From a virus, in IMG/VR virus record IMGVR_UViG_3300045988_160113, positions 71,791 to 135,790 of that record: a stretch of 64,000 bases of DNA, one strand, 5' to 3'. The notes under the pieces are model-generated. The model saw nothing but the letters and a program-made list of their open reading frames with translations. It was not told the DNA's origin and searched no databases. Positions within the stretch are counted from its first letter, which is position 1, and every line of letters starts with the position of its first letter. The position numbers and the translations under genes are program-made. This document shows, one piece after another, positions 36,628 to 54,409 of this stretch.

Positions 36628-37239
36628 ATGGATAATATAGTTGTTTCCATTCCCGAACGTGCGAACACAACCATCCCTGACCCAAGTCTATTATGGTATT
36701 ATGAAGACTTAGAAGATAGAGTTTATCAATTGGTTGGAGAGGTTGATGAAGGTTTGCTAGATTTCTCACGCCACGTTATTAGATGGAATAGAGAAGATAA
36801 AGGAAAACCAGTTGAAGAGCGTAAGCCTATAAAATTATTTTTCTTTAGTCCTGGTGGAAGTCTTGATATAAATTATTCTGTCATTGATATTATTCGCTTG
36901 AGCAAAACTCCTATTATTGGCATCAATATGGGTGTTTGTTGTTCTGCGGCGGCGTATATTTATCTTGCTTGCCATAAGCGTTATATGCTCCCTCATTCTT
37001 ATTTTGTATTTCATCAAGGCAGTTCTCAAATGTCAGGAACTTATGGTGAAGTTGTTGCTATTATGACTGATTATCAGAATCAAGTTGCTGAATTAAGTTC
37101 CTTTATGGAAGAGAGAACTACTTATACTAGTGAGGAAATTACTGACAATATCGTTACTGAATGGTATGTAAGGGAAGAGGAAGCTCTTGAAAAGGGAGTA
37201 TGCCACGAAGTAATAGAAGATATAGAGGTGCTATTATAA
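36628..37239 (+). CDS. ClpP-family serine protease
   Basis: LFFFSPGGSLD...GVCCSAAAYI...FVFHQGS (Ser/His positions as in ClpP). Confidence 0.7.
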   Translation: MDNIVVSIPERANTTIPDPSLLWYYEDLEDRVYQLVGEVDEGLLDFSRHVIRWNREDKGKPVEERKPIKLFFFSPGGSLDINYSVIDIIRLSKTPIIGINMGVCCSAAAYIYLACHKRYMLPHSYFVFHQGSSQMSGTYGEVVAIMTDYQNQVAELSSFMEERTTYTSEEITDNIVTEWYVREEEALEKGVCHEVIEDIEVLL

Positions 37240-38067: not shown

Positions 38068-38072
38068 ACTAT

Positions 38073-38900: not shown

Positions 38901-38907
38901 TTATTTC

Positions 38908-38937
38908 GGGCGGCGTCTCTGCGCGCCGCCCATTTTT
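38908..38937 (+). terminator. Rho-independent terminator
   Basis: gggcggcg-tctctgcg-cgccgccc followed by aTTTTT. Confidence 0.7.
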
Positions 38938-38951
38938 ATGGAAGTGATGAA

Positions 38952-40601
38952 ATGGCGAACCTATTGGGTGAAAGTAAGCAACTTGCCAGCAAATTTGTAT
39001 TCTACGACCAACTAAAAGAGTATGACCCTGGTACTATTCAACGCTCTCTATACGATAGCGCTGTTTCTGCTGGTGAAGCAGTTCTTGCTCTCAATAAACC
39101 AGAGTCGCGAGCAGCATTCATCGCTTCTAATCTGCGCGCGCAAGCAAGAAATGAAGCACAGAAAGATATAATGTTGCTCAATACTTACTTTGGTGGGAAT
39201 TATAATATTGACGATGTTTATAATAAAGATATTGGTAAAAAAATCACCATTGCTCTCAATGAAGCACTCAATTTGAAAGATATTTTTCAACGCAATTATG
39301 ACCGTATTGTAAATGAGAAAGGTGATGGGCGCGCAGCAAAGGTTACTATTTCTTCTGTTATGGAGAGTTATGTAATAACAGAAATTAGAAACAGTTGGCC
39401 TACTATTTGTAATCATGTATTGAAACGCTTAGCAGATAGTAATGGTGAATACTCTATCGCGCAAGCAATAGAGGAAGAATTCAATTCTGAATATATAAAG
39501 AAAGTTATTGGACGCGCGCTGGACAAAGCATTAGCATCACCTACTTGGACTGGTGGAAATGATAATCCTTTCAAAGAATTAGTGGACTATTTGAATACCC
39601 ATAAAGACCGTCGCAATGAAATTCTTGACAAAATGTGGCAGTATTTAGGAATTGATAGATTGAAACAAAATATGGTAGAAAATATTACTAATTCTGAACA
39701 ATTGAAGAATTTCAAAAATAGCCGAAAGAGCGGAAAAATAAATTTGACTACTTCAATCAAAAGCGGAGTCCAGCGAGGGCTTATGGGAGAAGCACTTTCT
39801 CAAGTTGTTAGTGAGGCCGCGGTAAAATTGAATACAGAGAATACTAAGTTTACTTCTGAGCAAGTTGGCTCTATCGGCGCGAAGCCAGATGTAATATTAG
39901 GTTTTCAAATCAAAGTGGATACTATTAGTGGTATTATGACTAATGATAGATTCAAAGGGTCTGATAGGGAAACTAATCGAAGTAGATTTATTGAAATCAA
40001 TGAGCATTTGAAGAGATTGAATAAAGGAATTGTTGTCTACTCTAATGTAAAAGATTACGCACTTGGTCAAGATTTCAAGAGACGTGGTGGTTTTTCTACT
40101 GGTGGAGACATGACATTAGATACCTATGCTAATATAATGAAAAAGACAAAAACAGGCGAGTTCATTGGCGCTGTTGCTAATGCTATGGATAAAGCAGTAT
40201 TTGGCGATGATAAGCATAGGCAAGCAATTTTAGAAATGATAACTCAAGATATGGCAAACTTTTTGTTCGATGATGTATTTACCGTTGGTAAAGAAATGAC
40301 TGGCGGCGCAACTGCGATACATCTGATGAATTTAGATGGAGTATATATTCCAGTTTCATATTTACTATTGCTTTTAGCAGAAGCATTTGAAAAGGAAGAT
40401 AAGAATAATTATCGAGATATTTTCTATCCAACTATTAGGTATACGGAAATTTTATATCCTGATGGCGGTGAAGGCCATGAGGGAGATAATATATGGTCTT
40501 TTGAAGACTGGAAGAGACAGAGAGACGACGCACTAAACAAGATTACTATTGGCGCTCATTTTGCGCGCAGTTTTGTTGATATTGTAAAGGAATTGAAATA
40601 A
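38952..40601 (+). CDS. Hypothetical protein (549 aa)
   Basis: ORF track. A possible PD..QxK segment (AKPDVILGFQIKV) is weak. Confidence 0.55.
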   Translation: MANLLGESKQLASKFVFYDQLKEYDPGTIQRSLYDSAVSAGEAVLALNKPESRAAFIASNLRAQARNEAQKDIMLLNTYFGGNYNIDDVYNKDIGKKITIALNEALNLKDIFQRNYDRIVNEKGDGRAAKVTISSVMESYVITEIRNSWPTICNHVLKRLADSNGEYSIAQAIEEEFNSEYIKKVIGRALDKALASPTWTGGNDNPFKELVDYLNTHKDRRNEILDKMWQYLGIDRLKQNMVENITNSEQLKNFKNSRKSGKINLTTSIKSGVQRGLMGEALSQVVSEAAVKLNTENTKFTSEQVGSIGAKPDVILGFQIKVDTISGIMTNDRFKGSDRETNRSRFIEINEHLKRLNKGIVVYSNVKDYALGQDFKRRGGFSTGGDMTLDTYANIMKKTKTGEFIGAVANAMDKAVFGDDKHRQAILEMITQDMANFLFDDVFTVGKEMTGGATAIHLMNLDGVYIPVSYLLLLLAEAFEKEDKNNYRDIFYPTIRYTEILYPDGGEGHEGDNIWSFEDWKRQRDDALNKITIGAHFARSFVDIVKELK

Positions 40602-40831
40602 TGAAAGTAAGAACTATAAAGAAAGATAAACTATTGGAGTTAGTGAGCAATTATAATTGGGACCCGATTCCTAAAGAAGTAGTCGACCATTGGCTTTGTA
40701 TTTGGGGTTTGACTATTGAGATTGAACCCGAGACGCGCGCTGAAGAAAATGAAGCAAAGAAAACAGACTGCGCGCAGAACGAAATAAAAGAACAAAAAAA
40801 TAATGATAATAAAGTAGAGGAAGAGCATTAG
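40601..40831 (+). CDS. Hypothetical acidic protein
   Basis: ORF track. Confidence 0.45.
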   Translation: MKVRTIKKDKLLELVSNYNWDPIPKEVVDHWLCIWGLTIEIEPETRAEENEAKKTDCAQNEIKEQKNNDNKVEEEH

Positions 40832-40846
40832 TCTCTTCCTCTTTCT
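40817..40846 (+). terminator. Rho-independent terminator
   Basis: gaggaagag-cattagt-ctcttcctc followed by TTTCT. Confidence 0.6.
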
Positions 40847-40849
40847 AAT

Positions 40850-40878
40850 TTGAAAATTTTAGAAATATATGATATAAT
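40850..40878 (+). promoter_or_regulatory. sigma70-type promoter with conserved leader
   Basis: TTGAAA-17 bp-TATAAT. Confidence 0.65.
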
Positions 40879-40910
40879 ATATATAGAAAGTGGAAAGAGA
40901 GGAACTAAAA

Positions 40911-41213
40911 ATGTATAAATCCAATAAGTATTCTGCTCAGAGAGATGCTATCATTGAGGGTTGCGCAATGGTGAAACTTGCTGAAGCAAGTGATGCCCTT
41001 ACTCTTGATGAAATTATTTGCGGCGAGCCACTTCTTGCTGGAGTAAGCACTCAGAAGCTCGCGCGAGTAATGATGAAGTTTGTTGATATGGGTTTCGTGG
41101 TAAAGTCTAAGCGCCGCGATGGTAAGATGATTTATAAAACTGTTGCTAAGATGGAAGAAGAGGGATATGAGAGAGACCCTGTTACTCATTTGTTTGGAGG
41201 AGAAATGGCATGA
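40911..41213 (+). CDS. Winged-helix-like DNA-binding protein
   Basis: Start MYKSNKY. ...STQKLARVMMKFVDMGFVVKSKRRDGKMIYK. Confidence 0.45.
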   Translation: MYKSNKYSAQRDAIIEGCAMVKLAEASDALTLDEIICGEPLLAGVSTQKLARVMMKFVDMGFVVKSKRRDGKMIYKTVAKMEEEGYERDPVTHLFGGEMA

Positions 41214-41440
41214 CTGATTTGAAGTATTATATTGGTAATACAGTTGAAGATACTGTTATGGTAACTCCCGATGATAAAGCAATTTATTTTGATACAGAAG
41301 AAGAAGCACAGTTTTTCTTTGATAACTATCTTACACCCGAAGACAGAGAAATTGCTATTATCATTCATTGTATTTTGTTTTATGATGGTGGCTATGTAAA
41401 TTGGAAAGAATATAAAAAAGAGTTAGAACAGGAGGAATAA
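41210..41440 (+). CDS. Hypothetical protein
   Basis: ORF track. Confidence 0.45.
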   Translation: MTDLKYYIGNTVEDTVMVTPDDKAIYFDTEEEAQFFFDNYLTPEDREIAIIIHCILFYDGGYVNWKEYKKELEQEE

Positions 41441-41441
41441 T

Positions 41442-42635
41442 ATGACTGTTCATGATACTTATGATAATCTAATGGAAGTCCAAAAGTTTATTCTTGACCA
41501 CGAAAATTGGAAAGAACTCTTGGAAAATCCTCCTTACTGCCTGAAGATTACCGTAGAGGGTACTCTTATTATGTTCAATTATAGTCAGTTGGATTCTGAT
41601 TTCTATAATCCTATCGTCAAGGAATGCCGTGGTTTGATTCTTGATAAAAATACTTACCGAGTTGTGTGTCGCGCGATGGATAAGTTTATGAATGCTGAGG
41701 AAGGTGCAAGTGACCTCAATAAAATCAACTGGTTTGATTTTCAGATTCAGACTAAAATTGATGGGTCTTTGATTCGTCTTTATCATTATAACGGCGAATG
41801 GCACGTGTCCACCAGTGGTACGATTGATGCCTTCAATGCACCTCTCAATGTTGGCGGTTACAAGACTTTCGGTGATTTATTTGCGGCAGCACTATGGAAG
41901 TATATCAATCCTGAGTGTTTTTATGGAATGCTTGACCCTACTCATACTTATTGGTTTGAGTTGACTTCTCCGTATAACCGCGTTGTTATTCCTTATGATG
42001 AAATTGAATTGACTTTTCTTGGTTGGCGCGCAAATTATGCTCCCTATAAGGAAAAGTGGCCCTCTCAGTCAGTTGTCGCAGAGTATATTCCTATTGCTAG
42101 TAGGCTTCCTCGTCAATCTTATCAGTCTCTCCGCGCGCTGGCTGATTCATTGCCTTGGAATGAAGAGGGCTTTGTAATTTGTGATAATAATTTCCATCGT
42201 GTCAAGGTGAAGTCTCCTGCTTGGATTTCTGCGCACTATCTGCGGAATAATGGCATTCAGCCTGACCGTAGACTTATTGATGTTATCCTACATGGTGAGC
42301 AGGAAGAATTGCTTACTTATGCTCCTGAATATACCGACCGTCTACACGAACTTCAAGCAATGATGGAAGAGTATCACCTGCGCGCTGATGAACTTTTTAG
42401 TGTTTATTTGGAAATGTATATTGGTTTGGATTGTCCTGGCCGCGCATGGTTCGCAAAAACTGTAAAGAAGAATAAAGAAGATTGTGAACCGTATTTGTTT
42501 TGGGCTTTCAGTAAGATTTATGGCACTCCGCGCGGTGAAATGGATGATAATAAAGATTATTCTTTCAAGAGATATGAGAAGGAAAATCTTGATGCGCGCA
42601 AGTGGGTAAGATTGTTGAAGTTGAAGGAGGAATAA
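41442..42635 (+). CDS. ATP-dependent RNA ligase family protein
   Basis: ECRGLILD..., motif I QTKIDGSLIRLYHY (KxDGS), EGFVICD, VKVKSP. Confidence 0.65.
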   Translation: MTVHDTYDNLMEVQKFILDHENWKELLENPPYCLKITVEGTLIMFNYSQLDSDFYNPIVKECRGLILDKNTYRVVCRAMDKFMNAEEGASDLNKINWFDFQIQTKIDGSLIRLYHYNGEWHVSTSGTIDAFNAPLNVGGYKTFGDLFAAALWKYINPECFYGMLDPTHTYWFELTSPYNRVVIPYDEIELTFLGWRANYAPYKEKWPSQSVVAEYIPIASRLPRQSYQSLRALADSLPWNEEGFVICDNNFHRVKVKSPAWISAHYLRNNGIQPDRRLIDVILHGEQEELLTYAPEYTDRLHELQAMMEEYHLRADELFSVYLEMYIGLDCPGRAWFAKTVKKNKEDCEPYLFWAFSKIYGTPRGEMDDNKDYSFKRYEKENLDARKWVRLLKLKEE

Positions 42636-42636
42636 T

Positions 42637-43467
42637 ATGACTCGTGAAGAGAGAATTATGAATGGCGTGAAAGACCATTGGGACGATGCACAGAGAAATG
42701 GTCAGATGCCACAGTTTTCATTAGGAATTTTTCTTCAAGGAAGTCAGAACTATGGCCTTGATTATGAGGGTAGTGATATTGATACCAAGTTGATTACTCT
42801 TCCAACTTTCAAGAGCATTATTCATAATGATGCGCCTGTTAGCACAACTTTTGTAAGAGAGAATAATGAGCATACTGATTACAAAGATGTGAGATTGTAT
42901 ATTAAGAATTTCAAGAAACAGAATATCAATTTTTTGGAGATTTTATTTACAAATTTTGGGATTGTAAACAAGAGATTTGAGGAAGATTGGCTTAGTCTCC
43001 AGTTGAATAGAGAAAGGATTGCTCATTACAATCGTTTTCGCGCGCTGAAAGTGATGAAGGGAATGACGCTTGAGAAGTATGCGGCACTTGAACATCCGTA
43101 TCCATCTAAGAAAGAGGTATTGGAGAAGTACTCATTCGACCCAAAACAACTTCACCATATCCTTCGTCTCAATGACTTCATTAGCCGTTATACCCAAGAA
43201 GAGTCTTTTGCAGATTGTCTTATTCCTACTAATCCAGAATTCCTTATCGAAGTAAAGAAAGGCAATGTATACGATTTGGACCGCGCGCGAGAAGTAGCCA
43301 AGAAAGTCGTTGCTAATACTGTTGAAATCGCTGATAAATTCTGCGAACTTATTCCTGACCGCGGCGACCCTATTGTTGATGAAATTCTTGACGAGTTTCT
43401 TTGCAATGTAATGAAAGAGTCTCTTAGTTTGGAGTTCAGTAATTTTTACTGTTCAGAAATATATTGA
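42637..43467 (+). CDS. Pol-beta-superfamily nucleotidyltransferase
   Basis: LQGSQNYGLDYEGSDIDTKLI (GS...SDxD). Confidence 0.6.
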   Translation: MTREERIMNGVKDHWDDAQRNGQMPQFSLGIFLQGSQNYGLDYEGSDIDTKLITLPTFKSIIHNDAPVSTTFVRENNEHTDYKDVRLYIKNFKKQNINFLEILFTNFGIVNKRFEEDWLSLQLNRERIAHYNRFRALKVMKGMTLEKYAALEHPYPSKKEVLEKYSFDPKQLHHILRLNDFISRYTQEESFADCLIPTNPEFLIEVKKGNVYDLDRAREVAKKVVANTVEIADKFCELIPDRGDPIVDEILDEFLCNVMKESLSLEFSNFYCSEIY

Positions 43468-43488
43468 CCAAGGAATTATCTACGATTT

Positions 43489-43517
43489 TTGACTTTTTCT
43501 CAAATTTTTGATATAAT
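43489..43517 (+). promoter_or_regulatory. sigma70-type promoter with conserved leader
   Basis: TTGACT-17 bp-TATAAT. Confidence 0.65.
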
Positions 43518-43542
43518 ATATATAGAAAGTGAGGAAAGAGTT

Positions 43543-44274
43543 ATGGATATTGTTTCGCTTCGTGAACAGTGGAAGCCTTTCTTTGATAAAATTAGACAGA
43601 CCAAGGAGTTTGAAGAGTTTACTAAAGACCCTTGGTCTCGGTCTTTTTCTCATCTTTGCGAGGCCATCAAGGAAAATTTTCCTGACTTTGCTTTTACTTC
43701 TGATAGTGGTGAAACAAAGTTTGTGATTATTCCAGAAGATTATGACATAGTTCTCAAGTTTCCTAATGCTCCGACAAGACATGACTTTTCTATTGATTAT
43801 TGTCTTGTTGAAGCAAGAAATTATCGCGCGGCAGTAGAGAAGCATTTAGATAAATATTTTGCTTGGTGCGATAAACTTTTTGACGTATATACGCCTAATG
43901 GGTATTATCCTATTTATGTTATGGAAAAGGTAAACTGTGATGAACAGTCTATCAATGAAGAGTTGATGGATTGGTTCAATAACAACTATGATGAACCCGA
44001 TTCTAAAGATGAAAAAGAAATGATTGAGTATGAAGATACTCTTCAGGAATTTTCCGATGGCTCTAGTGTTGCTGTTGACCTTTGGTTTGAGTCTATTTTC
44101 TCTGATGACTATATGCGTCTTATTCAGTTTTTCGCTACTAATCTTATTGATGATATCCATAGTGGTAATCTTGGATATCGCAATGGAGAAATTGTTATCA
44201 TTGATTATTGCGGTTACAGCACACTTTTCAATTCCAAACTTCCTAAAGATTGGTATTCAAAGTATGGTTTTTGA
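43543..44274 (+). CDS. Hypothetical protein
   Basis: Start MDIVSLREQW after the leader gtgaggaaagag. Confidence 0.5.
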   Translation: MDIVSLREQWKPFFDKIRQTKEFEEFTKDPWSRSFSHLCEAIKENFPDFAFTSDSGETKFVIIPEDYDIVLKFPNAPTRHDFSIDYCLVEARNYRAAVEKHLDKYFAWCDKLFDVYTPNGYYPIYVMEKVNCDEQSINEELMDWFNNNYDEPDSKDEKEMIEYEDTLQEFSDGSSVAVDLWFESIFSDDYMRLIQFFATNLIDDIHSGNLGYRNGEIVIIDYCGYSTLFNSKLPKDWYSKYGF

Positions 44275-44361
44275 TGGATTCTTCTGCTCAAAATTCCTCT
44301 TATAATAGGGAGAACTCTCCCTTTATAATATATTTATGCGGCTTGCCGCAGAGGAGGAAAT

Positions 44362-45159
44362 ATGGCTAACAAACATATGAAATCCTCAAACATTATTCTT
44401 ATGGTTGTTATTGTATTTATGGTGATGATGGGAACTGGATTTTACTCATTATGCCATGCAAACGACACAGAGGTTCTGCGCGCGGAGAAAACGCAAGAAT
44501 ATGAAAGTGTTGAAGTAGCAACCAAAGACCCAAATGAGTTGAAACAACTCATGGCAGAGTGTGAGAGTACAATGAAGACCGCCAATATTATGGCAGAGTC
44601 AGCAAGAACCCTTGGATATGATGAGGGACATATAATTATTGCTCTTGCGAAAGAAGATTATGGACGCGCGCAGAAAGAATATGAAGTATACTGTGCAGTC
44701 TATGATGACATAATGAAAGTATGGGAGGAATGTGCGGCTGAATATCCTGCGGCCACTCAAGCATGGTTATATTTATATAACCTTGGATATTCTGATTCAG
44801 TAATTGCTGGTATTATCGGTAATATGATGGTTGAATGTGGTGGGCATACTCTTGCTCTAAATCCAACTATCTATTCTAAGGATGGATACTATGGTCTTTG
44901 TCAATGGAATAAGAATTATGGTATTCATGGAACTTCTATTGAAGTTCAATTAGATTATTTAGCTAATAGTATTGAAGAAACATTTGATAATTTTGGTTAT
45001 CTTTACCAACGAGGCTTTGATTATTCCAGTTTTATGAGTCTCACGAGTGAAAAAGAAGCGGCTTTAGCATTTGCTAGAGTGTATGAACGTTGTACTATAT
45101 TTTCCTACGGCGCGCGTAGAGCATGTGCAACTACGGCCTATAATTACTTTGTGAAGTAA
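44362..45159 (+). CDS. Membrane-anchored protein with phage tail-lysozyme-like domain
   Basis: N-terminal TM. VIAGIIGNMMVECGGHTL...YGLCQWNKNY...QLDYL. Confidence 0.55.
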   Translation: MANKHMKSSNIILMVVIVFMVMMGTGFYSLCHANDTEVLRAEKTQEYESVEVATKDPNELKQLMAECESTMKTANIMAESARTLGYDEGHIIIALAKEDYGRAQKEYEVYCAVYDDIMKVWEECAAEYPAATQAWLYLYNLGYSDSVIAGIIGNMMVECGGHTLALNPTIYSKDGYYGLCQWNKNYGIHGTSIEVQLDYLANSIEETFDNFGYLYQRGFDYSSFMSLTSEKEAALAFARVYERCTIFSYGARRACATTAYNYFVK

Positions 45160-45184
45160 GTAAGATAAAGAATAATGTTTGAGG

Positions 45185-45216
45185 AGAGGACGTTTATAAT
45201 GAGCGTCCTCTTTTTC
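45185..45216 (+). terminator. Rho-independent terminator
   Basis: agaggacg-loop-cgtcctct followed by TTTTT. Confidence 0.65.
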
Positions 45217-45220
45217 TAAT

Positions 45221-45249
45221 TTGATTTTTTCTGAAAATTTTAGTATAAT
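45221..45249 (+). promoter_or_regulatory. sigma70-type promoter
   Basis: TTGATT-17 bp-TATAAT. Confidence 0.65.
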
Positions 45250-45269
45250 ATTTATATAAAATAAGGAGA

Positions 45270-45674
45270 GTGGTATTATTGTTTAGAATTATTGGAAGTT
45301 TTTATTTGTTTGTTTGTTTTTTCAATATTCTTTACTTTATTGTAGTTATTACTGATACACTCAGAGAAGTGAATAATGGTTTACATGAACTACAGCAGAA
45401 TATTGATACCGTAACAAATGGAAAGATGGATATTGAGATTCCTTTAGTTGGAATTAGTGTGATAAAATCATGGCCTTATTTACTTCATTCTATTATTCCT
45501 ATTTGGCATTTGGCTCTCTTTTATACTTTTATTACAAAGAGAGATAAAGTTTATAATACTTTTTATACAGTGTTTCAAGGTAAGGCTGTCAAAAATGTTA
45601 GCGAAGTTATGGAAAGTATTGGTGTAAAAGACTTCGGCAAAGAAATGGAGGAAAATCATGACGACGTTTTATGA
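45270..45674 (+). CDS. Membrane protein
   Basis: ORF track. Start GTG 45270 or TTG 45279. Confidence 0.45.
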   Translation: MVLLFRIIGSFYLFVCFFNILYFIVVITDTLREVNNGLHELQQNIDTVTNGKMDIEIPLVGISVIKSWPYLLHSIIPIWHLALFYTFITKRDKVYNTFYTVFQGKAVKNVSEVMESIGVKDFGKEMEENHDDVL

Positions 45675-45915
45675 AATTAGAGCAGAATACTTTGATACGG
45701 ATAATAAGGATAGTAATGTTGGTACATTTAGGGGTTATGTTTGTGCACAGAACTATGCTAATGCCGCGGCAATTGTTGAAAAAGAGTTTGAAGGAATTTT
45801 GATTAGTATGAGTTTACTTGAAACTAACTGCGGCCCTATTCTAGATGTAGACGATACTGGTCCTGATAAAATTGATTGGAAGATTAGGGAGAATGGTGGT
45901 AAGAATGAAGAATAA
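45658..45915 (+). CDS. Hypothetical protein
   Basis: ORF track. Confidence 0.45.
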   Translation: MTTFYEIRAEYFDTDNKDSNVGTFRGYVCAQNYANAAAIVEKEFEGILISMSLLETNCGPILDVDDTGPDKIDWKIRENGGKNEE

Positions 45916-46075
45916 ATCTTTCAATCAGGAGACTTGGGAGAAAGCTATTGAAAAACTTCATGAATTAGGAATTAGTACAGTTCATGAAGATGGAACTCTT
46001 TTGACTGGTTATGAACTTTTAGAAGCAATGGCTGAAAAATGGTCTGAATTGGAGGGAATTTTCAATGAAGAATAA
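45905..46075 (+). CDS. Hypothetical protein
   Basis: Start MKNKSFNQ. Confidence 0.4.
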   Translation: MKNKSFNQETWEKAIEKLHELGISTVHEDGTLLTGYELLEAMAEKWSELEGIFNEE

Positions 46076-46424
46076 AGAAGTTCTCAAGTTACGTCGTAAA
46101 ATTTGTAAAGGTTTTCGCGTGCTGAATAATAATCTTCGTGATGATTATCTTTGGCGTGGTAGATTTGAAGTACGTATGAAAGATTTCCAATATAGGAAAT
46201 ATTTCGATAATAGTGGTTATCAAGTTTGGGTCTGCGCGCAGTTTATTGACCATAAGACTGGTCAAACTAAAGACCTGTGGGGAAATTATTTTGATTGGAC
46301 TAGTGGTTGGAAAGTATTCGTAGCAATGAATGTTTTTATTGTTGAAGATTGCCATGTTTGGGAATATGATAAAGAAGACCCAAACTATCCAACTAATGAT
46401 AAAACTGTGTATAGGAGTAAATGA
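46065..46424 (+). CDS. Hypothetical protein
   Basis: ORF track. Confidence 0.5.
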   Translation: MKNKEVLKLRRKICKGFRVLNNNLRDDYLWRGRFEVRMKDFQYRKYFDNSGYQVWVCAQFIDHKTGQTKDLWGNYFDWTSGWKVFVAMNVFIVEDCHVWEYDKEDPNYPTNDKTVYRSK

Positions 46425-46425
46425 T

Positions 46426-46737
46426 ATGACTTACGAAGAGTTTCTGGATTTTGTCAAGGGCTATGATGAGTTCAATAATTATGTGAATAGTCTATATGAA
46501 TTGGGTATGGTAACTGATGATTGTCCTATTATGGAAATGTACGGTTATTATGCCAAGGCGATTTGTAAGAATTTTGGTGCGGACTATGCTTGGTTTTTGA
46601 ATTGGGCAGATGATAAGTGCCTTCATGTCAAAGACTATAGTGATAATCATCCTGGTATTGATTTTTGGGTGCGCGATGGCTTGGAAATGTATAAGTTCCT
46701 ACAATCTGAGACTGCGCGCGAAGAGTGCTGGATTTGA
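46426..46737 (+). CDS. Hypothetical protein
   Basis: Start MTYEEFLDF after aggag. Confidence 0.45.
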   Translation: MTYEEFLDFVKGYDEFNNYVNSLYELGMVTDDCPIMEMYGYYAKAICKNFGADYAWFLNWADDKCLHVKDYSDNHPGIDFWVRDGLEMYKFLQSETAREECWI

Positions 46738-46746
46738 TAAGCAAAT

Positions 46747-46775
46747 TTGAAATTTTCTCAAACTTATTATATAAT
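46747..46775 (+). promoter_or_regulatory. sigma70-type promoter followed by ~230-nt leader
   Basis: TTGAAA-17 bp-TATAAT. Confidence 0.6.
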
Positions 46776-47003
46776 ATATGTAGAAAGTGAGAGAGAAAAA
46801 GATAATAAAATTCAGAAGGGCGTTCACTTCTCTATAAGGATAAAGAATAGTCCATACCTCTCAAAGTGCTATTCAATAAGGTTAGATTATAAGTAGGTAT
46901 GATAGTTCTGCTAATAAACTTGAATAGAGTCAATGACGTTGTGGCTTTGATTGTATGATACCTCCAAAAGAATTTTATTAGAAAGAAAGTGAGGGAAAAG
47001 AAT

Positions 47004-47375
47004 ATGTATGCTTATTTTTGTTTGACTGCTGAATACACTGTCAAGGATGGTGAAAAAATCGACGAAGCCAAAGAAAGCGATTGTCTTTATGATGTTTCCA
47101 TTGACGCTAAAATCGATTTTGACTATTCTGCTGCGCGAAAAGTGAAAGTTGGTAGGCTTGGCGATATTCTTGATGATACTTTTGAGTGGAATACTTACTA
47201 CGAAGATATTCTAAGACTTAGCCGTGAACACCCAAATGTTCTCTTTGACCTTTACTATGAAGATACAGAAGAGTTCGCAAGCGCGCATATCTACTTTATT
47301 GCTGGACTTTATCAGTATAGTCCTGCGATTGTAAAGTATGAAGAGTTTGACTCGAATAAATTATGTTCATATTGA
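47004..47375 (+). CDS. Hypothetical protein
   Basis: Start MYAYFCL after gtgagggaaaag. Confidence 0.5.
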   Translation: MYAYFCLTAEYTVKDGEKIDEAKESDCLYDVSIDAKIDFDYSAARKVKVGRLGDILDDTFEWNTYYEDILRLSREHPNVLFDLYYEDTEEFASAHIYFIAGLYQYSPAIVKYEEFDSNKLCSY

Positions 47376-47388
47376 GAGGAGATTGATT

Positions 47389-47577
47389 ATGAGAGACCCT
47401 AATCGTATTTATGTTATTTGTTCTCAGATTGCTAAAGCTTGGTATGATAATGTCCCTGATTGGCGTTTTACTCAGATGTTATGTAATTTTCTCTCTTATA
47501 TGGGTTCCGATTGTTTCTATATGGAAGATGAAGTATTTATGGAAAAATTCAACGAGTATATGAGGACACTTGTATGA
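47389..47577 (+). CDS. Hypothetical protein
   Basis: Start MRDPNRIYV after gagagga. Confidence 0.45.
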   Translation: MRDPNRIYVICSQIAKAWYDNVPDWRFTQMLCNFLSYMGSDCFYMEDEVFMEKFNEYMRTLV

Positions 47578-47744
47578 ATGTATTTTTACTTCGAGTTATA
47601 TTGACAATTCTTATCGGTTCTTTTTGGTATGAAGCCAAAAGAATTTTTGAATTAGAGAAGAGAGAAAATGGCGCGCGAATATTTATGTATTGTTATACGG
47701 TGCTGTTGATTTTGGTACTGTGTTTTATTTGGTTTTTGATGTGA
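47574..47744 (+). CDS. Small membrane protein (56 aa)
   Basis: Own translation MNVFLLRVILTILIGSFWYEAKR...; ATGA overlap. Confidence 0.35.
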   Translation: MNVFLLRVILTILIGSFWYEAKRIFELEKRENGARIFMYCYTVLLILVLCFIWFLM

Positions 47745-47760
47745 AAGGAGAGTGATGTGT

Positions 47761-48322
47761 ATGGCAATCTGGATTACTTCAGATTGGCATTAGGCATTTT
47801 TGCCATGATAGAGAATTTCTTTATAAGCCACGCGGTTTTGATAATATTCAAGATATGAATCGTGCAATTATTCAGAGGCATAATAAACTGGTAAACTGGG
47901 ATGATGATGTCTATACTCTTGGTGATTGTATGCTCAATAATAACGATGAGGGAAGAAGTTGCATTGCTCAGTTGAATGGACAAATTCATATTATTAGAGG
48001 AAACCACGACAGTAATGGCCGTATGGAAATCTATCGTGGCCTTCATAATGTAGTTGAAGTGTGCGAAGGTAAATTCCTGCGCAATGGAAAATACCATTTC
48101 TATCTTTCTCATTATCCTTGTCTTACGAGTAATTGGGATGAAGATAAACCTCTCAAGGCGCGCATGACGAATTTGTGTGGTCATAGTCATACTAAAGACC
48201 ATTTTGCAGACTGGGGCAAAGGTCTAATTTTTCATTGTGAAATGGATACAAATAATTGTGAACCCATTCTTCTTGATGATATTATCAAGAAAATTGAAAT
48301 CAAGTTAGGAGAAAATAAATGA
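47761..48322 (+). CDS. Calcineurin-like metallophosphoesterase, reading frame broken after codon 10
   Basis: MAIWITSDWH-TAG in frame 1. Frame +1 continues RHFCHDREFLYKPRGFDNIQDMN...VYTLGDC...IIRGNHD...GHSH. Confidence 0.5.
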
Positions 48323-48687
48323 ATACTGGAAAAATTATTGCTCTCGGTGCAGTGAGTGCTATTGCTATCAATGCGCTTGGTTATTTTGCGATGAATACCG
48401 GCATTGGCTATAATATTATCGTATTTGGCTGTATTGCCATTGTGGAAGTTCTTGCTATTATTGCTTTTGTGAAGTGGATTTTTGCTCCGCGCGCGGAAGA
48501 AAAGATTACTTCTCGTGGTAAGCGCGCACCATCCAATGCTTTCAAAGATGGCGATGTGGCACTTTATAATTCCGATACTGGTGATTATGATGTGCTTAGT
48601 GATTACGAAGCGCCTGATATTGACCTAAAGGAAGCATATGATAACCTCGATAAGACACTTGAGAATTGTGATGTAAAGGAGAACTAA
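48319..48687 (+). CDS. Membrane protein
   Basis: ORF track; two TM segments. Confidence 0.5.
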   Translation: MNTGKIIALGAVSAIAINALGYFAMNTGIGYNIIVFGCIAIVEVLAIIAFVKWIFAPRAEEKITSRGKRAPSNAFKDGDVALYNSDTGDYDVLSDYEAPDIDLKEAYDNLDKTLENCDVKEN

Positions 48688-48688
48688 A

Positions 48689-49192
48689 ATGCTTGTTGTT
48701 CTTGTTGGCCCTTCGTATAGTGGTAAGTCAACTGTATGTGAATTTTTCAAGAGATATTATAAGATGCAGGAACTTCCTATGTATGTTGTTTGTCCTGATG
48801 ATATTCGTGAAGAACTTCTTGGTGATGCTAGCGACCAGTCAAATGGCAAGATGATTTTTGAGACTGCTTATGAAAGAGTAGACAAGGCACTAAATTCTTC
48901 TTTGAATACTGTTTTCTTTGATGCTACTTCGCTTACTCCTGCGCGCAGAAAGCCTCTTATTGAAATTGCGAAGAAACATAAAACGTGTTGCTTTGCCGTG
49001 GTTATGCCTAACTTTACTGAAGAAGAACTCACTGCGCGCGCAGCAACTCGTGAACGTAAGGTTCCTTTAGATGTGGTCTACGCGCAGAAACAGAGAATGA
49101 TTTATCCTAATGTTGAAGAAGGCTTTGATTATACTATGGAGATTCCGAAGTCTTCATTGGATATTATGAAGGAGCGACTAAATGATTGTTAG
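48689..49192 (+). CDS. P-loop kinase (AAA_33 / polynucleotide-kinase-like)
   Basis: MLVVLVGPSYSGKSTV Walker A. Confidence 0.55.
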   Translation: MLVVLVGPSYSGKSTVCEFFKRYYKMQELPMYVVCPDDIREELLGDASDQSNGKMIFETAYERVDKALNSSLNTVFFDATSLTPARRKPLIEIAKKHKTCCFAVVMPNFTEEELTARAATRERKVPLDVVYAQKQRMIYPNVEEGFDYTMEIPKSSLDIMKERLNDC

Positions 49193-49793: not shown

Positions 49794-49822
49794 TTGAAAT
49801 TTTCTGAAGTATATGATATAAT
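49794..49822 (+). promoter_or_regulatory. sigma70-type promoter with conserved leader
   Basis: TTGAAA-17 bp-TATAAT. Confidence 0.65.
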
Positions 49823-49849
49823 ATATATAGAAAGTGAGAGAAAGAGAAA

Positions 49850-50053
49850 ATGAGAATTCTTTTTATTATACTGTTTATCATTGGTGTTGCAGTTTTTCTT
49901 TTTTGTTTTATTCAATGGTGTTTTGCTTTGGCTAATATTAGTAGTAAAAATGATTCAAAAGAAATTGAAAGAATACTTTATTGGAATCTGTGGATTGCAT
50001 TTTCTGCTCTTTATATAAACATTATCAATATTTTATTCAAACTTTGTGTATGA
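49850..50053 (+). CDS. Small membrane protein
   Basis: ORF track. Confidence 0.4.
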   Translation: MRILFIILFIIGVAVFLFCFIQWCFALANISSKNDSKEIERILYWNLWIAFSALYINIINILFKLCV

Positions 50054-50226
50054 AGAAAAAAATTATGAAGAAGAAGATTGTTGAAAAGTTATCTGAACTT
50101 GAGAGACGAGATAAATTCTTCACTGAGTTAGAAGAAACTTGTCCCATTCATTATGAAGGAACAGATATTGTAGCAGATGTTTCTCTTGATGTGGAATTTA
50201 TCTTTCAAAATTTGAAAAATTCATAA
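50050..50226 (+). CDS. Hypothetical protein
   Basis: Start MKKKIMKKKIVEKL; ATGA overlap. Confidence 0.4.
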   Translation: MKKKIMKKKIVEKLSELERRDKFFTELEETCPIHYEGTDIVADVSLDVEFIFQNLKNS

Positions 50227-50240
50227 ATCTTTGCTATAAT
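50212..50240 (+). promoter_or_regulatory. sigma70-type promoter
   Basis: TTGAAA-17 bp-TATAAT. Confidence 0.65.
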
Positions 50241-50269
50241 ATTTATAGAAAGTGAGAGAGGTAAACAAA

Positions 50270-50482
50270 ATGAATAGAAGTGAGTTCTTTGAATTAGTTC
50301 ATGATGTTGTTGATACATATGGTGTTTATTCTTGCCTTGATAATGAGGATGACATTGAAGAGAATAATCTCTGGTTCAACTGTCCAAATTGTGGAGACCC
50401 AATTTTGTATGACGATTTCAAGAACGACAAAGACCTTCATGCCGGCTTCTGTCCGATTTGTGAATCTCAACTTTTTGATTGA
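50270..50482 (+). CDS. Zn-ribbon protein
   Basis: Start MNRSEFF. CPNCGD...CPIC. Confidence 0.45.
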   Translation: MNRSEFFELVHDVVDTYGVYSCLDNEDDIEENNLWFNCPNCGDPILYDDFKNDKDLHAGFCPICESQLFD

Positions 50483-51870
50483 TAAATCCTTTCAATACTC
50501 GAATGGTCGGTGAGAGTATAAATAACCTGACTACCATGGTGAAACGGTAGTAGCCAACCAGTATAGAGGAGTTCGATTCTCTGAACCGCGGCGTTCGACT
50601 CGTCCGGTGCGAGGGCAAAACTGGTATAGCGCGAAGAAATTGGAGAGCCAGATGACGCGCTACTCTCTGATGCTGGTCAGTCTCACGTCTTGCAGAAAGC
50701 ATCTAAAACACGGGGTACGCTGAGCATTAGTCGATGCGGCGGCTTCCTAGGAGAGTTCTAACCTAGGCCAAGGTTTATGAACACCGCAAGTAAGGTTCTT
50801 CTTTTCGAGGGTGATGTATTGTGAGGAAGGGCTGAAAGACTTAGATGGGAAGTAATGATGATTACTCGATCTAAGTGTGTAGAAAATTAGAATCGAAGAC
50901 CTCGTAGCGGCCGTAGCGAGGCTACCGTGTGGACGGTAATCGTGTCCTCCAAAGTGCTAGGCAAAGCGGGCATACAGAGTGGTGATTGAACAGTTATTGG
51001 CTAGTCCACTCATTGAAGCTACTAATCCTGACGTCGGAGGTAGTAGTTGACGGCAATCAAAAAGATTGTAAGTCCATGGAACTAATGCGCTGTGCTCATT
51101 GTCTATGGCATGACTGTGAAGACTCAATAGGATGTCTTCCAAAACGATGTGAGAAGTCGTGCAGAGTGGTGATAACACTAGCCCACTCAATAAATCCAGA
51201 TGATACTGGTTGAGTTGTGTGTAAGGAAGAGGTAAGGTTGGTGTGCGGTATATAAAGAAGGCCGTGATTAGCATACAACAAAAAATACAGACGAGGGGTT
51301 AGGTAATGTGATGGATTCGGCGGGTGAAAGTCCCGTGGAGGTAGTCTGTATTCTAATTCTAATTCTAAAAACCTACATAGAAGTAATTCCACCTTGAGAA
51401 GGGTCGTCATTCGACGAAGTATAAGTTGAGTACTACTTATACTAATAAAACAGACTGGTGGTTGAGTAGGTCATCTGGATTCTTCTAATAGGTAGCAGTC
51501 ACCTACGTCAAGCGGGCCTTGTATCACGGTTTCCCGCGGAAGGCTGTAGACTGTGAGAGTGTGATAGTAAATGGGAACAGGGGAGGCCCTCAAGCACACG
51601 GGCGAGCGCACGCCTTTCTCCCTATATATGCTTAGTTGGTGTAAGGGGTAGCATAAGCCGCGGAAGCGGAGACTCTGGTTCGAACCCAGAACTAAGCACA
51701 GTAATGTGGTAACTACCATGCTCAACGCGCGAGAGTACCCGGAAGGTAGTTGACAGCCAGGAAAGACTGGCAGGCCTGGTCGATTAGTGTAACGGTAGCA
51801 CGCCATCCTTTTATGGAGGAAGAGAGGTTCGACTCCTATGCGATCTCAATTATTTATTAGGTAGTCATTA
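50483..51870 (+). ncRNA. Candidate large structured ncRNA (R2, ~1.4 kb), paralogous to R1
   Basis: ORF-free apart from spurious minus-strand ORFs, and GC-enriched. Carries GAATGGTCGGTGAG...AACCTGACTACCA. Has duplicated CAGAGTGGTGAT..CTAGyCCACTCA hairpins (50977, 51163) and tRNA-like modules at the 3' end. Confidence 0.55.
51630..51698 (+). ncRNA. tRNA-like element lacking an anticodon loop
   Basis: Perfect acceptor gcttagt/actaagc, D arm gtgt-aaggggta-gcat, T arm tctgg-ttcgaac-ccaga. The anticodon arm is replaced by ccgc-GGAA-gcgg. No CCA. Confidence 0.55.
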
Positions 51871-51955
51871 CTCCATCGCGAGGAGCCTAAACAAGAGTAA
51901 AAGAATGACTGGCACTCTGGAAAGACGGAGAGACGTCTATAAAGAGGTAGTTGAT

Positions 51956-52162
51956 ATGGATTGGAAAGAAGTTGTTATTTGTGCGCCAGAGGACGCCGTA
52001 AAGAAAGCAATAAAGTTTTGTGAAAGTCATGAGTGCGTGGAATGTCCAATTCATATCAATGATATTGAGCATAGAACAAAGTATGATAAATGTTGTGAAT
52101 TTGTTCCTTGTGTGGCTAATTTGATTTATGAGTTGGTTGTGCACCCACATTATGAACTTTAG
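51956..52162 (+). CDS. Small Cys-rich protein
   Basis: Start MDWKEVV after agagg. Confidence 0.4.
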   Translation: MDWKEVVICAPEDAVKKAIKFCESHECVECPIHINDIEHRTKYDKCCEFVPCVANLIYELVVHPHYEL

Positions 52163-52202
52163 TTTGGTCGGTTAGTCAAGTGGGCTAAGACACAAGGTTT
52201 TG

Positions 52203-52940
52203 GAGATGGTAATATAGCAATTATTGATTCTTACAGTAAAGAAGAATTAGAAAGTATTATCAAAAGTTCTTATTCTTATAAAGAAGTTCTTGAAAAATTA
52301 GGTTATTATAGTCATAGCGGAAGTTCTTATAAAATGCTACAAGATAGAATTCAAAAATATAATATAGATATATCTCATTTTACTAAGAAAAAGAATATTG
52401 TTCGGAATGAAGAGAATATATTTATAAAAGATTCTACTGTTTCTCAGCATTGTTTACGAGATTGGTATTTGAAAGGTAAATATACTGAGTATAAATGCTC
52501 TATCTGTGGACAGGAACCTTTTTGGCAAGGTAAGCCTCTTACGCTTATTTTGGATCACATAAATGGGAAAAACCATGATGATAGATTGGAAAATCTTCGA
52601 TGGGTTTGTCCTAATTGTAATCAACAATTAGATACTACTGGCTATAGAAAATTCAGAACGGAACAAAAAAGCAAGAAAGAATATTTTTGTTCAAATTGTG
52701 GTAAAAAAATATCTAAAGGTTCTACTTTATGTGTAGAATGTTTAGGGAAAACTAACCGGATTTGTGAACGACCGAATAGACAAGAATTGAAAAATATGAT
52801 AAGAACAATGAACTTTGTTGATATTGGTAAAAAATATAATGTATCTGATAACGCTATTAGAAAATGGTGCGATACTTATAATTTGCCTCGGCTTGCTACA
52901 CTTATAAAACAAATTCCCGATAACGAATGGGAAAAAATCT
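52203..52940 (+). mobile_element. HNH endonuclease gene insertion inside a tRNA gene
   Basis: The insertion is almost entirely ORF. The stop TAA overlaps the first 2 nt of the 3' tRNA half. Confidence 0.55.
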
Positions 52941-52942
52941 AA
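52334..52942 (+). CDS. HNH homing endonuclease
   Basis: LILDHINGKNHDDRLENLRWVCPNCNQQLD. The frame is open upstream to 52163 and encodes a typical N-terminal ...SKEELESIIKSSYSYKEVLEKLGYYSHSGSSYK, so the true start is probably a non-ATG codon upstream. Confidence 0.75.
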   Translation: MLQDRIQKYNIDISHFTKKKNIVRNEENIFIKDSTVSQHCLRDWYLKGKYTEYKCSICGQEPFWQGKPLTLILDHINGKNHDDRLENLRWVCPNCNQQLDTTGYRKFRTEQKSKKEYFCSNCGKKISKGSTLCVECLGKTNRICERPNRQELKNMIRTMNFVDIGKKYNVSDNAIRKWCDTYNLPRLATLIKQIPDNEWEKI

Positions 52943-53222
52943 CCTTGGAACAGGAGTTCGATTCTCCTACCGACTCCCACGAGTGAGCATTGGGCCAACT
53001 AACACTCTCAAAAATGATTGTCCCTTCTTCACCCTCCGCGTGGGCTACTCATAGCACAGAGACCACAAATGCGCGGCCATTATCAAAAGTCAAAAATCCT
53101 TGGCTTTGTATAAGTATAGTTCTACTGGTTGAGCAACAGTATGATAATACTTTAGTTTGATGGTTGATGTGTAGAGACTTTACTTGGTTCGGCTCGGAAG
53201 TGGGTAAAGTCTTGATTTATTT

Positions 53223-53294
53223 AGAGGATTAGTGGACCAGTGGACACGCTCGGCTTTGACCCGAGAGAAAGACGGCCAGCACGTCTATCCTCTG
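53223..53294 (+). tRNA. tRNA-Gln (TTG) with non-canonical T loop
   Basis: Perfect acceptor agaggat/atcctct, ctcgg-CTTTGAC-ccgag, T arm agacg-gccagca-cgtct, CCA encoded. Confidence 0.5.
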
Positions 53295-53321
53295 CCATAA
53301 TAATTTTATAAGAAGGGAGAT

Positions 53322-53963
53322 ATGAACGGTTATATTTATAAAATTACTAACGATATAAATGATAAAGTATATATCGGAAAAACATTATTGAATATTGAAA
53401 AAAGATTTCTTCAACATAAAAACGATAGTCGGAGAATTAGATTAGAAGTTCGTCCATTATACCGAGCAATAAAAAAATATGGATGTGAACATTTTTATGT
53501 TGAATTAGTAGAAGAATGCCCAATAAAAGAATTATCTAATAGAGAAATTTATTGGATTGATTTTTATGATTCATATAAAAATGGATATAATGCTACTATG
53601 GGTGGAGAAGGTAAACAATTTTATGATTATGACATTATCGTAAGTGAATTTTTATCTGGTAAAACAACAAAAGAAATAATGAATGATTTGGGTTGTTGTA
53701 TTGAAACTGTACGTAATGCTTTACATTTAGCAAATATAGATATAAATACAAATAATTATAAAAAGTATCAAAAGAATTTTGTAGCAAAGGATAAAGACAA
53801 AAAAATTGTTCAAAATTTTTTGACTAAAAGAGAAGCCGCAGAATGGCTAATCAAAAATGGTTATTCCAAAACCGATAACATTAAAAGTATTACAAGTGTA
53901 ATTGGCCGAGTATTGAATGGTCAGCGAGAAAAAGCTTATCATTTTTATTGGGAGTATACTTAG
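53322..53963 (+). CDS. GIY-YIG homing endonuclease
   Basis: NGYIYKITNDINDKVYIGKTLLNIEKRFLQH...REIYWIDFY...NGYN. Confidence 0.85.
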   Translation: MNGYIYKITNDINDKVYIGKTLLNIEKRFLQHKNDSRRIRLEVRPLYRAIKKYGCEHFYVELVEECPIKELSNREIYWIDFYDSYKNGYNATMGGEGKQFYDYDIIVSEFLSGKTTKEIMNDLGCCIETVRNALHLANIDINTNNYKKYQKNFVAKDKDKKIVQNFLTKREAAEWLIKNGYSKTDNIKSITSVIGRVLNGQREKAYHFYWEYT

Positions 53964-54014
53964 TTTATCAAATCTACCTGCGCCGCCATAAGAATTTATA
54001 AAGGAGAATTATCT

Positions 54015-54137
54015 ATGAATTTTCGTACTTACGACCATTATCTCAATCGTATTTCTAAGCTAATGTCTAAGGGTGATACTAATAAGCGTCTGGTCAATAA
54101 GACCAAGCGTCGTCTGAACCAGATGAAGGAGAAGTAA
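54015..54137 (+). CDS. Small basic ORF (40 aa)
   Basis: aaaggag RBS. MNFRTYDHYLNRISKLMSKGDTNKR.... TAATG overlap. Confidence 0.35.
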   Translation: MNFRTYDHYLNRISKLMSKGDTNKRLVNKTKRRLNQMKEK

Positions 54138-54409
54138 TGAAGAAGGTATTTATGTTTTGTCTTGCGCTGGTTATGTGCTTGGTGATTACTGCTTGTAATG
54201 GTCATAACAGTATTGGTGCTGATGCCGACGCGGCCATTCCAGTCTTTACCGACACCGGTATTCGAGTGAAGAATCATCAGGACCGTGTGTATAGTATTGT
54301 CAAAGATACGAATGGTTTTCTTTATTATTGCTCCGATGTAGAAGGTACTCTTGCTCCTGTTTATAGTGAGTATGGGCTTCCTACTAAAGATATGGATATG
54401 TTTGATTGA
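54137..54409 (+). CDS. Lipoprotein
   Basis: MKKVFMFCLALVMCLVITAC signal peptide with lipobox. Confidence 0.6.
   Translation: MKKVFMFCLALVMCLVITACNGHNSIGADADAAIPVFTDTGIRVKNHQDRVYSIVKDTNGFLYYCSDVEGTLAPVYSEYGLPTKDMDMFD

Follow-up and report, generated by a model that had tools for sequence, protein, structure and literature searches.

Does a 1.4-kb stretch of phage DNA that holds no gene specify one large RNA, several small ones, or nothing at all? The question is raised by R2, a region of a 64,000-nt stretch of a viral genome (positions 71,791 to 135,790 of IMG/VR record IMGVR_UViG_3300045988_160113) that we call the window; all coordinates are given in window numbering, and the features of R2 lie on the + strand. 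A sequence-only reading of the window had placed R2 at 50483-51870, directly after a small Zn-ribbon gene, and had described it, together with a similar region (R1), as one of two paralogous kilobase-scale non-coding transcripts. R2 is non-coding, conserved and locally structured, as that reading held; it is, however, not a paralogue of R1, and it does not behave as one indivisible RNA. Instead, R2 is a mosaic of separate, exchangeable structured-RNA modules, several of them made from parts of tRNAs, and some of these modules are shared among unrelated phages.

The phage (G+C content ~33%) is without a close cultured relative, and blastn found no match to either R1 or R2 among the INPHARED phage genomes. 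The window from 50270 to 53400 is 100% identical to NODE_538 of ENA assembly ERZ1755967, and the related contigs come from metagenomes of the gut, of which one carries the label pig gut. Using exact or near-exact matches to the Zn-ribbon protein and to a kinase, together with DNA patterns, we gathered 19 distinct versions of the R2 region; the collected loci, from relatives and from other carriers, are labelled with L-numbers (e.g., L001, L004, L036), and 14 of the R2 sequences were placed in an alignment (A2) that was used for the phase test and the consensus fold. The exact Zn-ribbon protein is present in 108 blocks of the assembly collection. In IMG/VR, two 20-mers from R2 and one hairpin pattern retrieved only L004, and a search for related loci with the kinase gave no relative. 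When divergent copies of R2 were sought via homologues of the Zn-ribbon and kinase proteins, only the same lineage was recovered, at 84-96% identity; R2 stays within this range in relatives whose kinase protein has as little as 76% identity. A match in Actinoplanes (L050) was discarded because it looks like chance similarity in G+C-rich DNA.

The interval 50483-51870 contains no credible sense open reading frame (ORF), so the claim that it is free of genes stands. Its end needs correction: the conserved non-coding block spans 50498-51938, and, after interruption by two inserted ORFs, conservation resumes within 52163-53320, in the segments 52163-52201 and 52943-53320. The G+C content of R2 is 42-50% vs 26-33% on either flank. 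In A2, variable sites are distributed evenly over the three phases (121/134/122, p = 0.66); in the Zn-ribbon gene, they follow codon position (15/10/32, p = 9e-4). None of the ORFs in R2, the antisense ones included, matched Pfam or PHROGs, and neither did a 264-amino-acid antisense ORF that a gene caller annotated in L009. With neither codon periodicity nor an ORF matching either collection, a decayed gene cluster, which the sequence-only reading had named as one outcome that would overturn it, is not indicated. The R2 blocks are 84-96% identical at the DNA level among relatives, about equal to the flanking coding genes; the idea that R2 is more conserved than its neighbors was therefore abandoned, and R2 is under a constraint that is no stronger than theirs.

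The structure of R2 is best supported at short range. A consensus fold of A2 in which the span was limited to ≤200 nt contains 372 pairs, with 97.3% of the cells paired. Thirty-two pairs are altered on both sides, vs 2-7 in controls with the 3' partners shifted by 1-3 columns, although this count is inflated because the fold and the count share one alignment; the covariation score is 0.095 vs 0.021-0.034 for the shifted controls, and 0 of 500 shuffles equal it. In helix 38, which is located in the block at 51189-51362, six of the 15 pairs vary on one side to a wobble pair and only 1 of 206 cells is unpaired; such one-sided, pairing-preserving changes point in the same direction as the compensatory pairs. 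Folding energies of single sequences are uninformative (z values of -0.19, -3.38 and +0.28 for the three thirds of R2), and the DNA of R2 has no long inverted repeat. Unrestricted folding with RNAalifold joins the 5' and 3' parts over ~1 kb; however, those helices have no compensatory pairs, and a scan for covarying helices returned 14 in the antiparallel orientation vs 10 in a parallel-strand control, so we distrust long-range pairing in R2.

The boundaries of the modules are revealed by the relatives: indels sit at module borders, and modules are gained, lost, duplicated or swapped. The first is an acceptor-like hairpin motif of 37 nt (50500-50536) that begins with CGAA and ends with CCA; in between, a stem of 7 bp (UGGNNGG/CYRNCUA) encloses an A-rich loop of 17 nt (UGAG..AAAYAAC). 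In 13 variants from many phages, 97.8% of the stem cells are paired, and pair 9-31 occurs as UA, CG, AU and GC. The motif is often separated by 3-6 nt from a tRNA gene, or it follows a promoter by ~15 nt; in many relatives, a 120- or 87-nt insert immediately follows its CCA. The sequence after the CCA is unrelated between contexts, which makes it plausible, although it does not establish, that the CCA is a free 3' end. A variant of the motif with the stem UGGUAGG/CCUACUA is found at 3323-3359 of L049, a 3.9-kb contig of an Acutalibacteraceae metagenome-assembled genome (JAZRAA010000025.1); this is a weak hint that some carriers of the motif have a Clostridia host.

The motif is followed by a double-T-loop junction module of ~90 nt (50537-50625). 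This module contains a D-arm-like hairpin (UGGU/GCCA, 50537-50556), a stem, P1, that closes the module (50557-62 paired to 50620-25), two T-loop hairpins, of which the first (50568-82) has the loop UUCGAUU and the second (50586-50607) the loop UUCGACU, and a small hairpin (UGC/GCA, 50608-17). The junction module is also encoded by unrelated phages (L036/L028, L053 and L051/L052), including a pair of loci with ~48% G+C and an integrase-like ORF (L036/L028); P1 takes the forms ACCAGU/ACUGGU, GUCAGG/CCUGAC and GCUGGG/CCCAGC, and compensatory changes occur in the stems of both T-loop hairpins. In L036, L051 and L053, the module is located a few nucleotides ahead of a tRNA or tRNA-like element.

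The remainder of the 5' part is largely specific to this phage lineage. A G+C-rich hairpin core (50626-50974) is found in this lineage only, at 87-94% identity among relatives; its helices include 50627-32/50657-62, 50832-48/50867-82, 50898-908/50913-22 and 50954-58/50969-73, and a compensatory change of CGU/ACG to CCA/UGG occurs at 50682-88/50717-24. The CAGAGUGGUGA...CUAGYCCACUC hairpin (CAGAGTGGTGAT...CTAGYCCACTC in the DNA), which had been noticed as a duplicated element, is indeed present twice, at 50975-51011 and 51162-51188; relatives have 1-3 copies of this CAGAGUGGUGA...CCACUC hairpin, the extra copy being found in L007, L024 and L026. Between the two copies are three adjacent hairpins and an enclosing helix (51017-51161), a block that is again restricted to the lineage and is mostly absent or replaced in L004; its helices (51017-28/51036-48, 51049-58/51064-74, 51075-90/51094-107, 51108-15/51155-62 and 51118-25/51131-39; helices 29-33 of the fold) contain eight pairs altered on both sides. 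The next block, at 51189-51362, consists of conserved hairpins (including 51229-49/51261-79 and 51316-24/51332-40) and is likewise found in this lineage only. An optional structured module of 125 nt (51363-51489) completes the 5' part; at its site most relatives have ~40 nt of unrelated sequence or almost none, and in L051/L052 it follows a tRNA-Leu (E 9e-9), with seven compensatory pairs. Thus, three modules (the motif hairpin, the junction module and the optional module) recur alone, and with covariation, in the tRNA islands of unrelated phages; no family in Rfam 15 covers any of the three (cmscan).

The 3' domain of R2 (51491-51938) has the layout block, tRNA-like element, block, tRNA-like element, block. 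A conserved 140-nt block (51491-51628, mean pairwise identity 0.90) precedes T1 (51630-51698), an anticodon-less tRNA-like element; a 72-nt block (51705-51776, identity 0.95, with the hairpin GCCAG/CUGGC) separates T1 from T2 (51778-51846), a degenerate tRNA-like element; and a third conserved block (51864-51938, identity 0.94-0.97) ends in the hairpin AGACG/CGUCU. The terminal tRNA-like modules that the sequence-only reading had reported are therefore real: against the Rfam tRNA model (RF00005, gathering score 29), T1 reaches 37.0 bits (E 6.6e-7), its homologue in L004 42.1 bits, and T2 25.6 bits. T1 has a canonical acceptor stem, D arm and T arm (GGUUCGAACCC), and its 17-nt anticodon arm is replaced by 14 nt (CCGC-GGAA-GCGG), which align as a local gap in the model; this mini-hairpin exists in 14 variants among the relatives, is variable in length, and has a 4-nt loop in some. 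T1 has no 5-bp anticodon stem with a 7-nt anticodon loop, and ARAGORN makes no call. In T2, the anticodon stem-loop is hypervariable yet still a hairpin, with compensatory pairs in the anticodon and T stems, and ARAGORN identifies T2 as Lys, Leu, Pro or undetermined across close relatives. Because T1 is without the 7-nt loop and the ‘anticodon’ of T2 differs among relatives, neither can be a stable decoder.

The distribution of sequence identity within this domain suggests a different use. Mean pairwise identity is 0.62 and 0.51 in the anticodon arms of T1 and T2, respectively, and 0.39-0.44 in the short linkers that follow them; it is 0.90-0.97 in the intervening blocks and the acceptor, D and T arms of T1 (0.90-0.92 for the parts of T1) and lower, 0.72-0.86, in the acceptor, D and T parts of T2. 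No other parts evolve as fast as these arms and linkers. Selection thus preserves the ‘top half’ of T1 and T2 and ignores the anticodon end. RNase P, RNase Z and the CCA-adding enzyme recognize the top half of a tRNA; since this is the part that is conserved, we propose that T1 and T2 are processing signals.

R2 is probably not transcribed separately. A sigma-70-like promoter on the + strand at 50212-50240 (TTGAAA, 17 nt, TG-n-TATAAT; 11/12 matches plus the extended -10 TG), which agrees with the promoter assigned to the Zn-ribbon gene by the sequence-only reading, precedes that gene (50270-50482, + strand, 70 amino acids), the stop codon of which is ~15 nt upstream of R2. Consensus scans of the + strand from 49800 to 54200 (4.4 kb) detected no second strong promoter and no terminator. 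From this single strong promoter and the lack of a terminator, we infer that the Zn-ribbon gene, R2, a small downstream ORF and the downstream tRNAs are probably one transcription unit.

The interpretation that we favor, with about as much belief as doubt, is that R2 is the precursor stretch of a tRNA island that would be cut at tRNA-like elements so as to release several conserved RNAs. Transcription from the promoter at 50212 would produce one long precursor that holds the Zn-ribbon gene, R2, the small ORF and the true tRNAs; the host RNase P and RNase Z/exonucleases would take their cutting signals from T1 and T2, from the genuine tRNAs and perhaps from the hairpin that ends in CCA; and the products would be a 5' piece of up to ~1.1 kb (50498-51628) plus pieces of ~72 and 75-90 nt. 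The released RNAs might then influence tRNA biology in the infected cell, as mimics, decoys or docking platforms for factors that bind or cleave tRNAs. Since their architecture derives from tRNAs, R2 lies in a tRNA island and the phage has RNA-repair genes, a tRNA-centered conflict is the most attractive guess for their function.

Several points weigh against this interpretation, in addition to the inflated covariation count. T2 is a poor match to a tRNA, its score being below the gathering score; the stem of the hairpin motif is only 6-7 bp, and in L036 the equivalent CCA seems to be base-paired and internal; co-transcription is inferred from consensus scans only. Competing long-range pairings are predicted for 51866-85, either with 51549-66 or with 51721-37. 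The full-length homologues, at 84-96% identity, fall into few haplotype groups and are too similar to test long-range pairing; because they are so alike and much of the core is invariant, the fold of the core is unproven. A role as decoy or docking platform in a tRNA-centered conflict between phage and host is speculative.

The main rival, which we consider unlikely, is that R2 (or only its 5' 1.1 kb) represents a giant ornate RNA of a new class, resembling GOLLD and ROOL, that folds as a whole molecule, perhaps forms multimers, and holds its tRNA-like elements in linkers as some GOLLD RNAs do. Phages and prophages encode GOLLD and ROOL as large, structured non-coding RNAs, typically beside tRNA islands, and the linkers of GOLLD sometimes hold tRNAs (PMC12286853, PMC5737381). 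The size of R2, its enrichment in G+C, its site in a tRNA island and its embedded tRNA-like elements match this context, its structure is dense, the core blocks keep one order throughout the lineage, and folding predicts long-range helices that connect the 5' and 3' parts as well as some around T2. However, the models for GOLLD (RF01998) and ROOL (RF03087) have no match in 50200-52300 even at E = 10 (cmscan), and none at gathering score in the window; the predicted long-range helices lack compensatory pairs, and the scan for covarying helices gave 14 vs 10 in the control. Furthermore, modules are gained, lost or duplicated while their neighbors are retained, and three of them stand alone in other phages, as is not expected of a single indivisible kilobase RNA of the kind proposed from the sequence.

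Two further possibilities are more doubtful, each to the same degree. According to the first, R2 would encode a new RNA family made from tRNA parts (the CCA-ended acceptor hairpin, the double-T-loop junction and the anticodon-less tRNA-like elements) that mimics tRNA. Such mimics could sequester or misdirect host factors that bind the acceptor end or the elbow of tRNAs, for example anticodon nucleases, CCA-modifying toxins or processing enzymes, or they could dock the phage's own tRNAs; in both cases they would provide an RNA-based counter-defense beside the ligase, kinase and phosphoesterase repair genes of the phage. According to the second, R2 would act only in cis, as a structured spacer and processing platform that controls how the co-transcribed tRNAs and small ORFs mature, how stable they are or at what dosage they are present, with no RNA that acts in trans. 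The single promoter, the lack of a terminator and the modules that abut tRNAs agree with a platform in cis, as does the location of the motif ~15 nt downstream of a promoter in relatives of R1; nevertheless, 1.4 kb conserved like coding DNA exceeds the needs of known leaders and spacers, and the same modules adjoin different tRNAs, or none, across phages.

That R2 is debris without a function, left at a hot spot of recombination by tRNA genes that decayed and by mobile elements (homing endonuclease genes, introns), is less probable again. The island is rich in homing endonuclease genes and insertions, its mosaicism is extensive, and T2 and a Gln-like element downstream resemble degenerate tRNAs, all of which debris would explain; it would not explain blocks that are 87-97% identical across many metagenomes, as the neighboring genes are, stems that are kept by compensatory and wobble-preserving changes, or modules that are retained in phages that differ in G+C content and lifestyle. 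Also, phage genomes rarely retain kilobases of inert DNA. Finally, an antisense protein or decayed gene cluster is barely credible: the antisense ORFs of 94-111 amino acids, and the longer one called in L009, are not conserved in length among relatives, show no 3-base periodicity and matched neither Pfam nor PHROGs, and a G+C-rich stretch in an A+T-rich genome is likely to be without stops by chance.

If R2 is a mosaic, what is its relationship to R1? Blastn detects one shared element, the hairpin motif (R1 copy at 35656-35692), with significant similarity (E 3e-4); the start motif of R2 that had been noticed in R1 as well is therefore genuinely shared. The 10-mer CCACTCATTG that had been listed as a second shared element is not significant, as ~1.9 shared 10-mers are expected by chance for two 1.4-kb sequences (our arithmetic). 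The rest of R1 has no similarity to R2, either by blastn or with profile hidden Markov models of all of the R2 blocks; that is, the two regions align over 37 nt only, and their description as paralogous kilobase-scale transcripts does not hold. The body of R1 has homologues of its own (in L030, L035, L038 and L042), and related phages of ~150-220 kb have three copies of the hairpin, each of which heads a different non-coding block. R1 and R2 are two islands of the same kind with one module in common, not paralogues.

R1 contains a match to RAGATH-33 (RF03102, 35396-35523, 129.9 bits), and in relatives RAGATH-33 is found in the same arrays as the hairpin motif. The RAGATH-33 model draws its 3' AAAUGAGU (35496-35503) as unpaired; this segment is complementary to ACUCAUU (35623-35629), which lies ~120 nt downstream and adjoins CCACTCATTG in R1, so there may be a larger structure of which RAGATH-33 forms the 5' part. 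In L001, L002, L003 and L005 (~165-220 kb), a cassette of ~77 nt is present just 5' of the hairpin motif when compared with R1 (35640-35655); the cassette contains a complete promoter (TTGACA...TGnTATACT), which implies that promoters also act as mobile modules in these islands. A non-coding island with the hairpin motif in L003 includes RAGATH-18 (RF03064, 73.3 bits, 1595-1667). L002 (9440-9830) and L005 (4626-4820) have tRNA-like genes in which insertions of at least ~50 nt separate the T arm from the anticodon region; one of the Rfam tRNA matches spans 195 nt (42.9 bits), and these genes may be intron-containing or otherwise expanded tRNAs.

Downstream of R2 the island is interrupted by the two inserted ORFs. 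The first insertion (51939-52162) contains a small Cys-rich ORF (ATG at 51956, 68 amino acids) with its own ribosome-binding site and no Pfam match; it is missing from about half of the relatives (L004, L009, L010 and L013-L015). The second is located in the anticodon loop of a tRNA-Glu(UUC) (52166-52979, + strand), which it splits into a 5' half (52166-52201) and a 3' half (52943-52979); this insertion (52202-52942, 741 bp) is nearly all HNH endonuclease ORF (52334-52942), the stop codon of which abuts the 3' strand of the anticodon stem, leaving no space for a group I intron RNA. The tRNA-Glu is intact in L008, L010 and L012, L007 carries the same insertion, and in L009 and L013-15 the slot is occupied by a tRNA-Ser; the split tRNA-Glu may be dead, or it may be rejoined, for example by the phage RNA ligase. 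The island continues on the + strand (52980-53320) with a conserved ~240-nt block and an aberrant tRNA-Gln-like element (53223-53297), the acceptor stem of which ends in CCA. Its T loop, GCCAGCA, is non-canonical, and its anticodon arm, CUCGG-CUUUGAC-CCGAG, retains UUG; ARAGORN does not call this element, and the Rfam tRNA model gives no match to it at E up to 1. In L007-L009, a canonical tRNA-Gln is found at this position. ARAGORN predicts eight tRNAs in the window, of which T2 is one.

The genes between R1 and R2 (36628-49192) include an RNA- and protein-maintenance set: a ClpP-like protease (36628-37239), a PhoH-like ATPase (38073-38900), an Rnl1-type RNA ligase (41442-42635), a metallophosphoesterase (47855-48322) and a P-loop kinase (AAA_33/KTI12-like, 48689-49192); the ligase, metallophosphoesterase and kinase resemble a heal-and-seal set for tRNA repair. 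GIY-YIG homing endonuclease genes (625-1719, 30559-31347, 37240-38067 and 53322-53963, those at 37240 and 53322 identified from N-terminal sequence only) are scattered through the tRNA and non-coding RNA islands; together with the HNH gene, they fit the heavy mosaicism there. A probable diversity-generating retroelement (DGR) is located at 17829-22337, with an Avd-like ORF (17829-18203; DivGenRetAVD, E 3e-6) and a reverse transcriptase (18471-19403; PHROG 1423, E 1.8e-80). Downstream of the reverse transcriptase is a stretch with 49-66% G+C, vs ~33% for the phage, that contains ORFs for Hoc-like head-decoration proteins (20243-21433).

Phage tRNA islands are usually read as tRNA genes and ‘spacers’; here, the spacers are structured and conserved like genes, and a small kit of RNA modules moves between unrelated gut phages. 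The kind of object, structured RNAs of phage tRNA islands, is known; at least three covarying modules that had not been described are new, and the motif hairpin, the junction and the optional module could be made into covariance models immediately. Should the released RNAs be mimics of tRNA, the tRNA-centered arms race between phages and bacterial defenses would gain an RNA component; if, instead, the modules fold together, R2 would join GOLLD and ROOL as a third class of giant RNA in phages.

How does R2 compare with known systems? Identities as RNase P, tmRNA, a riboswitch or a ribozyme were rejected for want of support in Rfam; for bacterial Y RNA (YrlA-type), R2 likewise has no Rfam match, and no TROVE domain was found among the large ORFs scanned. 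The non-coding RNA arrays of UG27 reverse transcriptases in gut prophages consist of ~150-nt tandem repeats with the motif AUCN7UANAG, beside the reverse transcriptase and two accessory genes (bioRxiv 10.64898/2026.09.22.753630). R2 shares with these the character of a variable array of structured, sequence-diverse non-coding RNA units in gut phages; however, AUCN7UANAG occurs 10 times in the window vs 12.7 expected, with 0 in R2, and the sole reverse transcriptase of the window is 30 kb away and is of the DGR type with the Avd-like partner, so an array of this type was rejected. RAGATH-33 and RAGATH-18, which are Rfam candidate RNAs from phage-like contexts, are neighbors in the islands and not homologues of R2, from which both are absent according to their covariance models.

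The T-box stem I, RNase P and the ribosomal L1 stalk use interdigitated T-loop platforms to dock the elbow of a tRNA. The junction module, with its two T-loop motifs and a D-loop-like GG hairpin, is reminiscent of these platforms; it differs in that each T loop closes a hairpin of its own within a four-way junction, and tRNA docking by this module is pure conjecture. The likeness to GOLLD, namely, the occurrence of R2 in a phage tRNA island with two tRNA-like elements, is one of context and not of membership; unlike GOLLD and ROOL, R2 is a modular mosaic without a supported long-range fold, and its modules are found separately in other phages. When compared with tRNAs themselves (RF00005), T1 exceeds the gathering score and yet has no anticodon loop, and T2 is below it. 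The tRNA cluster of phage T4 includes the species 1 and 2 RNAs, stable non-tRNAs that are co-transcribed and co-processed with the tRNAs; we liken R2 to these by description only, as they are two short RNAs and R2 exceeds 1.4 kb with about ten modules. Lastly, mascRNA-type elements and the ‘tRNA punctuation’ of mitochondria are tRNA-like processing signals; T1 and T2 likewise keep their acceptor, D and T parts and are located between conserved blocks.

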